A DNA stretch of 32,000 nucleotides from the NCBI GenBank assembly GCA_023898425.1, contig CP060222.1, forward strand, positions 510,001-542,000. The letters are read 5' to 3'. The position numbers were made by a program, and so were the translations under genes. This document shows, in pieces, positions 5,908-14,007 of this stretch (position 1 is its first letter; every line of letters starts with the position of its first letter). The stretch is from Candidatus Saccharimonadota bacterium (GTDB taxonomy: Bacteria; Patescibacteriota; Patescibacteriia; 2-12-FULL-60-25). The notes beneath the pieces are model-generated. The model saw only the letters and a program-made list of their open reading frames with translations. It was not told the origin of the DNA and searched no databases.

Positions 5908-7815
5908 ATGGCCACATACGCTTCTGTCATCGACGCTGTTTCTGCAAACGACCTTAATGCCGCTCGTGATATTTTACTTAGCGAAGTAAAAGAGACAACA
6001 AAAAATCGTAATAGCTGGGACTGCCCTCATTATAATACCGATCGCTCTATCCAAGAGGGTATTCAGGTTACTCATGAATTTGAGACGCTCGCAACATACT
6101 TTGGTCTCGAAAATCTTCGTGATCGTTATTTTTTGCGCGGTGCCGACGGTGAGATCTGTGAAGATATCCAAAAATTCTATACACGCGTTGCAACAGGCAT
6201 GTGTCGTGGTGATCGTGAGCTTGCTCAACGCCTCTATAATTACATGACTCGCTGCTGGTTTGTGCCGGCAACTCCCGTCATGATGAATATCGGCACAAGC
6301 AAAGGCCTCCCGATTTCTTGTTTCTTAAACACTGTTCCAGATACGCTCGAAGGAATCTTTGATATTTATCGCGAAAACGCCTTCTTATCAAAATACGGTG
6401 GAGGTATCGGTACTGACTGGTCACAGCTCCGTGGTCAGAACTCCCCGTTAAAGTCCTCAGGATTGCGCTCATCGGGCGTTATCCCATTTATGAAGATCAT
6501 GGACTCCGAAACGATTGCTATCAGCCGTAACGGGATTCGTCGTGGCGCAGCTGCTGCTTACCTCAGCATTGACCATCCAGATATCGAAGATTTCTTGGAG
6601 ATGCGCAAACCAACCGGTGGTGATATTGACCGTAAGTGCTTAAATTTGAATCATGGCATCACCGTCACGGATGAGTTCATGAAAGCCGTAGAGGAGGGGA
6701 GAGACTATGATTTGATTGATCCTCACTACAAAACGGTCGTCAAACAACTCAATGCACAAGAAATCTGGCGCAAAATCCTCACGATGCGCGCAGAAACAGG
6801 TGAGCCGTATATTATCTTTATCGATACGGTAAACAATGCTCGTCCGCAACATCACAAAGATCTTGGTCTTATGGTGCGTCAAAGTAATCTCTGTACCGAA
6901 ATCGTGCTTCCTACAGACGAGACACGTACCGCGGTTTGCTGCCTTGGTAATCTCAATATCGAAAAATGGGATGAATGGAACGAAGACATCGAGCAAATCA
7001 CTTACGACATCGTGACCGCGCTCGACAACAACCTCGAAGCCTTTATCGAGATGGCAGATCCTGTCGAATTTAAGAAAGCGATCAACTCAGTTAAGCACGA
7101 ACGCTCTATCGGCCTTGGCGCTATGGGCTACCATGGCTACCTCATGTCTAAGATGGTGCCATTTGAAAGCATGATGGCTCGTAATATTAACAAAGAAATC
7201 TTTACGAAGTTTGCTCAATACGCACGTGCTGCATCAGAGAGACTCGGCAAAGAGCGCGGACTCCCGCTTGATGGCGGCACACGTCGCAATAGCTATGTCA
7301 CCTCTATTCAACCAACAGCTTCAACGAGTTTTATCTGTAACGAAGCAACGCCCTCAATTGAGCCAATCTCAGGTAACGCCTTCTTACAAAAAACGCTCTC
7401 TGGTAGCTTCTTGTACAAAAACAAACATCTCGTACGCTTCTTAGAAGAGAAGGGGATGAATACCACCGAGATCTGGAAGCAAATCATCGCTGATAAAGGA
7501 AGCGTCGCCAATGTCGAAGGCCTCAATGACGAAGAACGCGCTGTCTTCCGCACCGCGTATGAGATGAATATGCGCGAAATCATCCAACAAGCCGCAGATC
7601 GTCAGCCGGCTATTGATCAAGCGCAGTCATTAAACGTCTTCTTTCCTACTCCTATTTCCGGTAAGTACTTGAACGACGTTCACATGCTCGCCTGGAAACT
7701 CGGCGTAAAATCGATGTACTACCTCCGCTCAGCCTCACCGATCCAAGCAGAACGCATTGACGGAAATTCTGTCAAAAGAGACGTCGCTAGTGAAGAATGT
7801 GCCGTTTGTCAGTAA
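5908..7815 (+). CDS. nrdA: class I ribonucleotide reductase large subunit (R1), without an ATP-cone
   Basis: Active-site motif SNLCTEI, the ISCFL cysteine, AVCCLGNLN, and a C-terminal CxxC pair (ECAVCQ). At 635 aa there is no N-terminal ATP-cone. Confidence 0.95.
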   Translation: MATYASVIDAVSANDLNAARDILLSEVKETTKNRNSWDCPHYNTDRSIQEGIQVTHEFETLATYFGLENLRDRYFLRGADGEICEDIQKFYTRVATGMCRGDRELAQRLYNYMTRCWFVPATPVMMNIGTSKGLPISCFLNTVPDTLEGIFDIYRENAFLSKYGGGIGTDWSQLRGQNSPLKSSGLRSSGVIPFMKIMDSETIAISRNGIRRGAAAAYLSIDHPDIEDFLEMRKPTGGDIDRKCLNLNHGITVTDEFMKAVEEGRDYDLIDPHYKTVVKQLNAQEIWRKILTMRAETGEPYIIFIDTVNNARPQHHKDLGLMVRQSNLCTEIVLPTDETRTAVCCLGNLNIEKWDEWNEDIEQITYDIVTALDNNLEAFIEMADPVEFKKAINSVKHERSIGLGAMGYHGYLMSKMVPFESMMARNINKEIFTKFAQYARAASERLGKERGLPLDGGTRRNSYVTSIQPTASTSFICNEATPSIEPISGNAFLQKTLSGSFLYKNKHLVRFLEEKGMNTTEIWKQIIADKGSVANVEGLNDEERAVFRTAYEMNMREIIQQAADRQPAIDQAQSLNVFFPTPISGKYLNDVHMLAWKLGVKSMYYLRSASPIQAERIDGNSVKRDVASEECAVCQ

Positions 7816-7820
7816 AATGA

Positions 7821-7856
7821 ATAAAACACCCGCAAAAGCGGGTGTATTATTTAATG
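7821..7856. terminator. hairpin terminator after nrdA (possibly bidirectional)
   Basis: Stem acacccgc (7826-7833) pairs with gcgggtgt (7838-7845) around the loop aaaa. There is an A-rich stretch 5' of it and a T-rich stretch 3' of it. Confidence 0.7.
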
Positions 7857-7889
7857 AAAGCATTAACCCAGAGTATGACAATCAAACAC

Positions 7890-7918
7890 TTGACATAATT
7901 AACAAGATCTGCTATTGT
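7890..7918 (+). promoter_or_regulatory. strong sigma70-type promoter with no ORF behind it
   Basis: TTGACA (7890-7895), a 17-nt spacer, then TGcTATTGT, an extended -10 with its hexamer at 7913-7918. Confidence 0.6.
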
Positions 7919-7924
7919 ACCGCC

Positions 7925-8317
7925 AGTCGAGCAAATAGCTCTTCTAAATTTATTTGGATATCGACAGACGTAATTAACCTGTTGGTAATCCCAGAGAGTT
8001 TCTGGGCATTGGCATGCCCTTACGTGATAACTTTCAGCGCAAGCTGGTTAGTAATTACGTACGAAGTACTAGTTTACTTCGGCATACTCTCGGGTACACG
8101 ATAGGCCAGAGGTGGGTGTTCACACTCCATCTGCTCGCCGAGGCGTGTACTGCCTCATTAAGACTAGGCCCAATCTCATTTCCAAATGGGAGCAAGCTGC
8201 ATCACCTGATTCGTAGGCCTGGAAAACCACGAGTACTGTGCGAGGTGCGTCTTAGTGATTACTTTCTCCCTGGATCTCCCCAGATTGCTTAAAACACAAT
8301 CTGGGGAGTTTTCTTTT
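7925..8317 (+). ncRNA. candidate structured non-coding RNA of about 390 nt, family not recognised
   Basis: The unit is delimited by the promoter at 7890-7918 and a strong terminator at 8276-8317. It has no ORF with an RBS. It contains many local hairpins, including a GNRA-capped one (cagc GCAA gctg, around 8033-8044) and mutually exclusive stems. By eye its 3' half is more GC-rich than other intergenic DNA in the window. Confidence 0.35.
8276..8317 (+). terminator. intrinsic terminator of the ncRNA candidate
   Basis: An 11-bp perfect stem, ctccccagatt (8276-8286) with aatctggggag (8298-8308), followed by ttttctttt. Confidence 0.8.
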
Positions 8318-8320
8318 CAT

Positions 8321-8358
8321 ACCCACACAAAGACATCTGCTTCGGTGGGTGTTTTTTT
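8321..8358 (+). repeat. terminator-like hairpin, copy 1 (attL-like hybrid)
   Basis: acccacacaaag-acatctg-cttcggtgggtg followed by T7. It is about 90% identical to copy 2 at 9036-9076. Its own two arms pair imperfectly. Confidence 0.6.
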
Positions 8359-8442
8359 ATTTTTTTGACGTGACATGTACCGCTTGATAAAAAGATGCGG
8401 CTAAACGCACTTTCCAACCCAAGAATGTGATTTGGAGACGGT

Positions 8443-9030
8443 ATGAATACGGCTATGGTACCAGGTTTGAATCTTTTGCTGCATTTCAAGCCAAGCGCTC
8501 CTCCTAAGATTGCGGTCATGGATGAAAAATTCATCCGCAAACATTTCTCTCACAAGGACCTACGTCAACGAAGACGTCTGGTGCTCGATGTACAGCGATT
8601 CAACGAGTATCGCCAAAAAAACCCCTCAACCAGAATCGAGCTCATTAGACTTGATCTAACGAGATGCGAATTAAGAGGGGCGAATCTACGAGGAGCCTCC
8701 TGCTGGAGAACGATCTTCGACAAGTCTGATTGTCGTGGCGTTGACTTTACGGGGGCGGACTTGGCTTATGCCAAATTCAAACAATGCGACTTGCAACATG
8801 CAACGTTTCGAGAAGCCGGTTTGACTCGTGCCGAATTTGACGAAGCCGACTTTCGAAAGGCTGTGCTCACAGGAGCGCTTGCTCATGGTGCGCGCTTTGA
8901 CGGTGCTGACCTTCGCGAGGCGGACATCAGTAAGCTAGATATCGACGCTGCGTCTTTTTGGAAGGCTCGTCTCAGGCCCGAACAGCAAGAGCATATCCTC
9001 TCACATTTCAAAAACTCCTTTCGGAGCTGA
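8443..9030 (+). CDS. pentapeptide-repeat protein
   Basis: Tandem A(D/N)LxX pentapeptides run through residues about 70-165 (CELRGANLRGASCWRTIFDKSDCRGVDFTGADLAYAKFKQCDLQHATFREAGLTRAEFDEADFRKAVLTGA...). GGAG at 8434-8437 lies 5 nt before the ATG. Confidence 0.85.
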   Translation: MNTAMVPGLNLLLHFKPSAPPKIAVMDEKFIRKHFSHKDLRQRRRLVLDVQRFNEYRQKNPSTRIELIRLDLTRCELRGANLRGASCWRTIFDKSDCRGVDFTGADLAYAKFKQCDLQHATFREAGLTRAEFDEADFRKAVLTGALAHGARFDGADLREADISKLDIDAASFWKARLRPEQQEHILSHFKNSFRS

Positions 9031-9035
9031 CCCAT

Positions 9036-9076
9036 CACCCACGCGAAGATATCTGCTTTGTGTGGGTGTTTTGTTT
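9036..9076 (+). repeat. terminator-like hairpin, copy 2 (attR-like hybrid); functional terminator of the pentapeptide-repeat gene
   Basis: cacccacgcgaag-atatctg-ctttgtgtgggtg followed by ttttgttt. As RNA it forms a 13-bp stem with two G-U pairs. Confidence 0.65.
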
Positions 9077-9077
9077 A

Positions 9078-9120
9078 AAAAAAGAAAAAAGGCCCCGGAG
9101 CAAGTAAAGCTCGACGGGGC
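9078..9120 (-). terminator. intrinsic terminator of the 122-aa gene (minus strand)
   Basis: Stem gccccggagc / gctc(ga)cggggc. An A-rich run on the plus strand at 9077-9090 reads as a T run after the stem on the minus strand. Confidence 0.7.
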
Positions 9121-9140
9121 AGACTCTATAACAAGTCCTG

Positions 9141-9509
9141 TTATTTTTTGCTCTCACGAGAGCGTAGAACAAAGAGCACTTCGCCTTCGGCGAGAAAGAA
9201 CCTCACCGCAAGAGTATGGGTTCTTGTGCTTACCATCAACAACCCTTCGGATATGTGGCTCACGCTTTTAAGCAGGTGCTGATGAATTGCCGCCCAAGCT
9301 TCTTTGTATTCTGGATTTTCTACCAGTTTAAATGAAGCGACGCCTTGGCTTGTTGATGACCTGCCAAATCGACCCTTGATCATCTCTTCGAGTCTTTCCT
9401 CGGCAACCGCTGCGATAACGCTGAGATACAACGTTTCGTGATCACCCCCAATTGATTTCCTCTGTTTTTGATTACCAGAGGCAATACCCGATGTCGTTGG
9501 TACGTGCAT
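9141..9509 (-). CDS. hypothetical protein (122 aa)
   Basis: It forms a complete expression unit: the promoter at 9543-9571, the RBS AAGGAtGGtGG directly upstream of the ATG at 9509, and the terminator at 9078-9120. I recognised no motif. Confidence 0.6.
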   Translation of the reverse strand: MHVPTTSGIASGNQKQRKSIGGDHETLYLSVIAAVAEERLEEMIKGRFGRSSTSQGVASFKLVENPEYKEAWAAIHQHLLKSVSHISEGLLMVSTRTHTLAVRFFLAEGEVLFVLRSRESKK

Positions 9510-9542
9510 TCCACCATCCTTCCCTTGGTAAAAAGGACGCCG

Positions 9543-9571
9543 ACTATAGCATGTCTATAATGTATTGTCAA
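9543..9571 (-). promoter_or_regulatory. sigma70-type promoter for the 122-aa gene
   Basis: On the minus strand: TTGACA (9571-9566), a 17-nt spacer, then TATAGT (9548-9543). Confidence 0.65.
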
Positions 9572-9604
9572 AAACACCACCTTAGCGGTGGTGTTTTTGT
9601 TTTT
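9570..9604. terminator. bidirectional hairpin terminator whose T run overlaps the -35 of the next promoter
   Basis: Stem caccacc (9575-9581) pairs with ggtggtg (9587-9593) around the loop ttagc, with A5 on the 5' side and T5gT5 on the 3' side. On the minus strand it follows the stop of the acidic-protein gene at 9605. Confidence 0.75.
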
Positions 9605-13674: not shown

Positions 13675-13703
13675 GCCCTCGACAAAATCTCGAGGGCTTT
13701 TTG
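13675..13703 (+). terminator. intrinsic terminator after the ABC transporter genes
   Basis: Stem gccctcga (13675-13682) pairs with tcgagggc (13690-13697) and is followed by ttttt. Confidence 0.8.
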
Positions 13704-14007
13704 TATTTAAATACGTATTTTATACTGCTTAAAAATAATAATAAATTAGACATTCTAAAGGCGTGTTGAGCTGAGAGAATAGAGCTGCGCCATGGATTTA
13801 TGACAAGCAAGTGTTTTTAACATCGGTAGAAACTAATAGAATCTGATAAGAAAATTAGCTAGGGAATCGTGTTTTAAAACCATAGCTATGCGTCGCACAA
13901 TATATCTTATACGACATAAGGGGTGGGATTTAAGCCAATAAGCCTTTAAAAATGCCTTTTCCTGATATTCGACCCAGACAAGTATTTTTACGAGCCGCTA
14001 GGATGCC

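Follow-up and report, generated by a model that had tools for sequence, protein, structure and literature searches.

6S RNA and the CsrB-type RNAs (180–370 nt) are independent units of a few hundred nucleotides that run from a sigma-70 promoter to a terminator, are non-coding, and have a multi-helix body. Type I toxin mRNAs are orphan-like transcripts of 200–400 nt that are strongly folded and carry their own promoter and terminator. T4-type phages reportedly contain so-called PeSL cassettes, which are gene cassettes composed of a promoter, a payload, and a stem-loop. Spare DNA is scarce in the ultra-small Patescibacteria, and to our knowledge almost nothing is known about their regulatory RNAs. 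Large orphan structured RNAs, such as raiA, ROOL, GOLLD, HEARO, and OLE, have come from the intergenic length/GC surveys of the Breaker laboratory (e.g., PMC8632094); these classes rest on covariation seen in many genomes and are included in Rfam.

Here, we analyzed a window of 32,000 nt (G000:C1:510001–542000) from the 1.03-Mb single-contig genome of a Candidatus Saccharimonadota bacterium; positions refer to this window unless preceded by G000. An initial annotation had proposed a promoter-to-terminator unit of about 390 nt between nrdA (5908–7815, with the domains Ribonuc_red_lgC and Ribonuc_red_lgN) and a pentapeptide-repeat gene, and our analysis confirmed this layout, with bounds at 7890–7918 and 8276–8317. 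Our best reading, to which we assign a probability of roughly 0.45, is that the unit encodes a structured small RNA that stands alone, is accessory, and was acquired horizontally; we name no partner for it.

The unit shares with 6S RNA and the CsrB-type RNAs the general architecture described above but differs in being accessory and species-specific, and in having no Rfam match, no 6S-like long irregular hairpin, and no repeated GGA loops. As in the RNAs of the Breaker surveys, there is a long ORF-free spacer with several helices and a GC content above that of ordinary spacers; unlike those RNAs, the unit matches no described family and has no second representative. The likeness to PeSL cassettes lies in the fact that the unit and the pentapeptide gene each have a promoter at the start and a related terminator hairpin at the end, and that the content of the slot differs between close relatives. 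In contrast to PeSL cassettes, one payload is non-coding here, the host is a cellular Patescibacteria genome, and any movement of cassettes by recombination is putative. Finally, the unit is similar to hok-like type I toxin mRNAs in length, strong folding, possession of its own promoter and terminator, and orphan distribution, whereas it lacks both an antisense RNA promoter and a hydrophobic ORF led by a Shine–Dalgarno sequence.

The near-consensus promoter described in the initial annotation was recovered in a promoter scan as a sigma-70-type site on the plus strand (7890–7918; TTGACA–17 nt–TATTGT), with an upstream TG that makes it an extended −10 promoter. It was the sole promoter-like site that the scan found in region 7000–9500, which counts in favor of an RNA gene. 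The promoter begins about 45 bases past the terminator hairpin of nrdA (ACACCCGC-AAAA-GCGGGTGT; 7826–7845), which is bidirectional and forms the left edge of a species-specific insertion, and the terminator stem of the unit lies about 360 bases beyond the promoter. Judged from the sequence, transcription would start near 7925. Across the genome, sigma-70-type sites with at least 10 of 12 matches occur 178 times, versus 17 times in a first-order Markov simulation, and those with an extended −10 TG occur 26 times, versus two in the simulation; 43% of such promoter sites fall in the 13% of the genome that lies outside long ORFs. This tenfold enrichment indicates that the organism uses such a promoter signal and, hence, that the site at 7890–7918 is probably real. 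Outside genes, 11 sites carry an extended −10 TG; their spacer measures 17 nt in 10 cases and 16 nt in one, and nine of them begin with TTGACA in its exact form. The promoter used by this CPR organism appears to be very canonical.

A 14-nt stretch upstream of the promoter (7864–7877; TAACCCAGAGTATG) is 86% complementary to 8083–8096, which is the 3′ strand of the closing stem of the junction described below, and also repeats the CCCAGAG of 7990–7996. The complementarity probably reflects chance and could be relevant solely in read-through transcripts from nrdA.

At the other end of the unit, the strong terminator stem that had been predicted is present, but it is a perfect 12-bp stem and not one of 11 bp. 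This intrinsic terminator on the plus strand (T1; 8276–8317) consists of stem strands 8276–8287 and 8297–8308, separated by a 9-nt loop and followed by TTTTCTTTT (also written UUUUCUUUU), which extends to 8317. The stem has a pairing probability of 1.0, and its perfect pairing together with the U tract again counts in favor of an RNA gene. A second plus-strand terminator (T2; 8321–8362) follows, which is a copy of the hairpin at 9036–9075 (T2′, plus strand). The genome contains only these two copies of the T2/T2′ hairpin family.

The unit has no coding capacity. All frames are interrupted by stops, and the longest open frame comprises 104 aa (7978–8292). The hexamer score of this frame was −0.23 bits, compared with 0.70 ± 0.26 bits for true frames (5th percentile, 0.27) and −0.92 bits for wrong frames (95th percentile, −0.29); the six frames of the unit were alike in this score, which was negative in every one of them. 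The period-3 power of the unit was at noise level, and none of its start codons has a usable Shine–Dalgarno sequence at a workable distance. A GTG codon at 8116 is preceded by GAGG at only 3 nt and lies inside the strongest hairpin. A search of 1.84 billion protein representatives yielded no relatives of the 104-aa frame, nor did this frame have a Pfam or PADLOC match. The two ORFs discussed in the initial annotation (7757–8104 and 8014–8292) exist, and both lack a Shine–Dalgarno sequence and run into terminator stems, as had been stated. Reading TGA as a sense codon (genetic code 25) does not generate any longer plus-strand frame, and these two ORFs remain the longest. The hexamer scores, the missing Shine–Dalgarno sequences, and the missing protein relatives support the earlier view that the unit holds no credible ORF.

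All helices listed in the initial annotation are present in the sequence, and the description of the unit as rich in structure holds for its 5′ two-thirds (7926–8160), where there is excess folding, but not for 8153–8275, where folding is at chance level (z = −0.18). Compared with shuffled sequences, the whole unit (393 nt) had a z-score of −5.4 for the plus strand and −5.0 for the minus strand, and minimum free energies (MFEs) were −141.5 and −133.7 kcal/mol, respectively. Folding of the plus strand is preferred, and the helices carry G–U pairs. Without the terminator, the z-score was −3.8. Divided by part, it amounted to −2.6 for 7925–7990, −5.9 for a core comprising residues 7991–8152, and, rounded, −0.2 for 8153–8275. 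This last segment, corresponding to one third of the RNA, is unstructured, which counts against an RNA gene.

In the same genome, RNase P RNA and tmRNA scored −2.4 and −2.6, respectively, compared with −5.4 for the unit, and random 393-nt windows gave a mean of −0.9 ± 1.5 and a minimum of −4.7 (n = 53). The MFE of the core was −70.6 kcal/mol, compared with a genome mean of −38.4 ± 9.1 kcal/mol, and in a GC-corrected MFE scan of the whole genome (12,750 windows) the core ranked among approximately the top 0.2–0.6%. Since 4 of 246 random 162-nt windows of the genome (about 1.6%) had z-scores of −5 or below, the fold z-score alone is no proof. The adjoining pentapeptide coding region showed no excess folding (z between +0.1 and −1.9), which indicates that the excess is particular to the unit rather than shared by the inserted DNA in general.

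The predicted structure starts with two AT-rich plus-strand hairpins (7929–7941 and 7959–7987, with pairing probabilities of 0.99 and 0.96, respectively). The second of these contains G–U pairs, which fits with the plus strand being the RNA strand. Next is a three-way-junction domain on the same strand (7991–8093), which is part of the core with z = −5.9. The junction spans 7994–8091 and is closed by a stem formed by 7994–7999 and 8086–8091 (pairing probability, 0.72), and its hairpins are located at 8004–8019 (0.94), 8021–8061 (0.97; with a GCAA tetraloop), and 8062–8081 (0.97). The domain is followed by a long irregular plus-strand hairpin with a UUCA loop (8094–8150), for which pairing probabilities are 0.89–1.0. 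The remaining segment (8151–8275, plus strand) is GC-balanced and without significant structure (pairing probabilities of 0.3–0.45), and its 3′ end is a C/U-rich run, UUUCUCCCU.

The GC content is 0.51 in 7991–8152 and 0.49 in 8153–8275, compared with 0.41 ± 0.07 in the short spacers of the genome. The initial annotation had noted that the 3′ half is richer in GC than true spacer DNA, which is indeed the case (0.49 in 8153–8275 versus 0.34 in 13700–14000), but the structure assumed there is at chance level. The co-inserted pentapeptide gene has the same GC content as the unit; this value may therefore reflect the composition of the donor rather than selection for RNA structure, which makes it weak evidence. 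The threefold occurrence of TAGGCC, previously put forward as a recurring motif, is also at chance level, given that 40% of shuffled sequences hold some 6-mer at least three times. Hence, what stood of the candidate novel structured RNA originally proposed is a self-contained, non-coding unit with no Rfam match and over-folded 5′ two-thirds, whereas the TAGGCC motif and the structure of the 3′ half did not stand.

Region 7800–9150 is free of tandem repeats, and we found no tandem or terminal repeats belonging to the unit itself. A 17-nt direct repeat (7900–7916 and 9129–9145), whose spacing equals the length of the insertion, was judged to be due to chance; by our own estimate, about one such pair is expected per 1.35 kb, and the copy at 9129–9145 lies in ancestral DNA. 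Similarly, a match to "AAAGCATTAACCCA" at G000 312709 falls within an unrelated minus-strand gene, at its 3′ end, and was considered a chance match.

The unit does not belong to any known RNA family. No match at the gathering score was obtained with Rfam anywhere in the window, in line with the initial annotation, which had failed to match the unit to known RNAs and had suggested this search. At E-values up to 10, Rfam 15 yielded terminator look-alikes only, the best being the trpB motif, which scored 32 bits versus a threshold of 59 bits and coincides with the two terminators. That the unit is not RNase P RNA, tmRNA, or 6S RNA was also confirmed. RNase P RNA and tmRNA are encoded at G000 880095–880516 (178.7 bits) and G000 805524–805930 (113.9 bits), respectively, and the 6S model had no match anywhere in the genome. 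ARAGORN detected no tRNA or tmRNA within the window. The location of RNase P RNA and tmRNA elsewhere, and the absence of the unit from both same-genus genomes, rule out a housekeeping RNA.

Several other element classes were considered, and most of them could be rejected. A hok/sok-like type I toxin–antitoxin system does not fit, there being no ORF led by a Shine–Dalgarno sequence and no promoter-like site on the minus strand in 7000–9500. The lack of tandem repeats in the region excludes a ToxI-like antitoxin, and the downstream protein, which would be the toxin of a ToxIN-like type III system, is a pentapeptide-repeat protein without a PADLOC match. PF00078 had no match in the whole genome, and with no reverse transcriptase encoded, a retron or DGR RNA is excluded. 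BLASTn, short-word BLAST, nhmmer, and the covariance model all showed the unit to be single-copy, which rules out a dispersed repeat, a MITE, or a REP element. As for a riboswitch or attenuator, we found no match to a known aptamer and no evident competing helix; two terminators stand in tandem, behind which the downstream gene could plausibly be served by its own promoter. Complementarity between the unit and the 5′ region of the pentapeptide gene was at chance level.

Searches for relatives of the unit gave no matches. BLASTn found none in the rest of the genome, in 40 related genomes, in 400 genomes of the phylum, or in phage or plasmid records, and a covariance model of the core found none in 127 genomes of the family (equivalent to the order) or 150 genomes of the class. 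When the model was run with filters off against 25 nrdA loci of the family (those of the two congeners plus 23 others), the best score was 10 bits. The counterparts downstream of nrdA that the initial annotation had suggested comparing for covariation are thus missing from these 25 loci. An ORF-free gap comparable to the unit is absent from all 29 nrdA loci examined in the family, and exact-pattern scans of viral, metagenome, and genome collections revealed no relative of the unit. At the loci of relatives of the pentapeptide protein in three collections, we found just two distant matches to the repeat region, with 33% identity. The unit is, hence, a single-genome orphan among the collections searched, which counts against an RNA gene.

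Within the genome, the core model scored only 6 bits, which is no match, against a leader of about 490 nt located elsewhere, and no kinship was found with other over-folded loci among those checked. Among the non-genic loci of the genome, over-folding is strongest at G000:C1:215461–216189, with GC-corrected z-scores of −8.2 and −6.2; this locus contains direct repeats of 63 nt and 36 nt, each present in two copies 568–587 nt apart, around CCCTCTCTC...GAGAGGG hairpins. At G000:C1:106030–106460, there are four hairpin modules with a spacing of 64/130 nt, each ending in TGTCGAAAGACTA (GAAA loops). Neither of these loci has an Rfam match. A perfect 25-nt inverted repeat without a spacer is located directly 3′ of a tRNA gene (G000:C1:454091–454140; positions 892–941 of locus L051).

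The unit and the pentapeptide-repeat gene lie together in an insertion of about 1.23 kb (7846–9076, plus strand), with T2′ at its right edge, which is missing in both same-genus genomes (L013 and L014). In these two genomes, the C-terminal halves of NrdA are 95–97% identical to that of the window, and a hairpin equal to window positions 9086–9118 lies almost directly 3′ of nrdA (in L013, of the nrdA terminator). The gene order in both is nrdA, this conserved hairpin, a variable gene, and a conserved gene for an acidic protein (67–73% identical). Neither genome gave a BLASTn or covariance-model match to the unit. The absence of 7846–9076 from the congeners identifies this segment as an insertion and the unit as an accessory element in a variable slot. 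Being accessory and horizontally acquired, the unit is excluded as an essential RNA. In the window, three elements occupy the slot between nrdA and the acidic-protein gene (7846–9600), namely the RNA unit, the pentapeptide gene, and a gene for a 122-aa protein; each congener has a different minus-strand gene there, and the 122-aa protein is 24% identical to that of L014.

The pentapeptide-repeat gene (8443–9030, plus strand) encodes a nearly orphan protein of 195 aa and has a GGAG ribosome-binding site. Reading of the sequence upstream of this gene suggests a plus-strand promoter at 8365–8393 (TTGACG–17 nt–TAAAAA with an upstream TG), which is below the threshold of the scan. The U tract of T2 is fused to the TTGACG, which is the likely −35 element of the pentapeptide gene, in 8357–8372. 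A ribosome-binding site and a promoter-like site of its own, located behind two terminators, set this gene apart and count in favor of a stand-alone unit. A pentapeptide protein with 97% identity is encoded in Logan assemblies, as P0002 on a contig of 37,421 bases and as P0122 on one of 3,569 bases.

The main rival to an RNA gene is that the unit is a functionless transcribed relic, i.e., a leftover from the donor, for instance of an untranslated region or of a gene in decay, that arrived with the pentapeptide cassette, retained or acquired a promoter and a terminator, and contains hairpins that are not under selection. This would account for the occurrence of the unit in one species only, in a slot that holds different genes in each congener, for a GC content (0.49–0.51) that is that of the neighboring foreign gene, and for the lack of structure in the 3′ third. 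We nevertheless consider a relic unlikely, because a z-score of −5.9 over 162 nt would be rare for a decayed gene, while the intact foreign neighbor is not over-folded, because no coding signal or protein similarity is left in any frame, and because neither the near-consensus promoter nor the perfect terminator looks decayed. The chances that the unit is a long cis-acting leader of the pentapeptide-repeat gene, i.e., a riboswitch or attenuator in which the folded domain senses a signal and gates read-through of the two terminators by transcripts from 7890, seem slim. Promoter, folded RNA, terminators, and gene do follow each other in this order on one strand, and the gene's own promoter did not reach the scan threshold. 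Such a leader would, however, have to overcome two strong tandem terminators with no evident antiterminator to compete with the perfect 12-bp stem; TTGACG–17–TAAAAA with its upstream TG is joined to the U tract of T2, and T2 and its copy flank the pentapeptide gene, marking it off as a separate cassette. Moreover, Rfam contains no riboswitch or leader matching the unit, and the other leader of the genome reached only the above 6 bits with the core model.

It is also rather improbable, if less so than a leader, that the unit is the mRNA of a small protein, possibly a type I toxin-like (hok-type) message that hides a short ORF, or else a gene that assembly errors have disrupted. The resemblance to type I toxin messages in length, folding, signals, and orphan character is real, a frame that is open from 7709 to 8104 reads hydrophobic over 7925–8104, and GTG 8116 adjoins a GAGG in the strongest hairpin. 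On the other hand, 3 nt between GAGG and GTG is not a workable Shine–Dalgarno arrangement, the minus strand has no antisense promoter, hexamer scores are negative in all frames, the 104-aa frame is without protein relatives, the two longest ORFs enter terminator stems, and TGA as a sense codon gives no longer plus-strand frame. The least probable explanation is that the hairpins act in DNA, as a recombination site, as a single-strand origin of replication left over from a plasmid or phage, or as a miniature mobile element. The nearly equal fold excess of the minus strand (z = −5.0) and the related terminator hairpins bounding the insertion would agree with such a role, but the segment is single-copy even by short-word BLAST and nhmmer, itself contains neither tandem nor terminal repeats, and resembles no phage or plasmid record, and its limits coincide exactly with a promoter and a terminator on the same strand.

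Returning to the reading of the unit as a small RNA gene, we infer that the unit is transcribed and that the RNA is the functional product, with a mode of action that could be as follows. Transcription would proceed from the sigma-70-type promoter of the unit, with a start near 7925, and would stop at the terminator at 8276–8317, with the second terminator serving as a back-up. The resulting RNA is predicted to have two parts, namely a compact and well-determined 5′ domain (7929–8150) consisting of two hairpins, the three-way junction, and the long hairpin, and a mostly single-stranded tail of about 125 nt that precedes the terminator. The folded domain may act as a stabilizing or protein-binding platform, and the open tail (8151–8275), with its C/U-rich end, is a candidate for contact with a partner RNA or protein. 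The unit would have arrived by horizontal transfer, as a cassette of promoter, payload, and terminator, and would have landed beside a separately promoted pentapeptide-repeat gene, in the slot of variable content that nrdA and the conserved acidic-protein gene delimit. One could go further and envisage the unit as the first member of a new class, comprising mobile, cassette-borne structured RNA genes of Patescibacteria that spread between genomes through recombination at terminator hairpins; its partner would be the neighboring pentapeptide-repeat (DNA-mimic-type) protein, which it might, for example, regulate or with which it might form a defense or counter-defense pair. We regard this as doubtful, and about as improbable as a small-protein mRNA.

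Taken together, the unit is a plausible yet unproven orphan RNA gene, which is new in that it matches no known family and is ordinary in kind; it is a lead for transcriptomics and not a discovery. If real, it would be a horizontally acquired RNA gene that is packaged like the protein-gene cassettes of the same genome, which would mean that RNA genes are part of the same swappable accessory pool.
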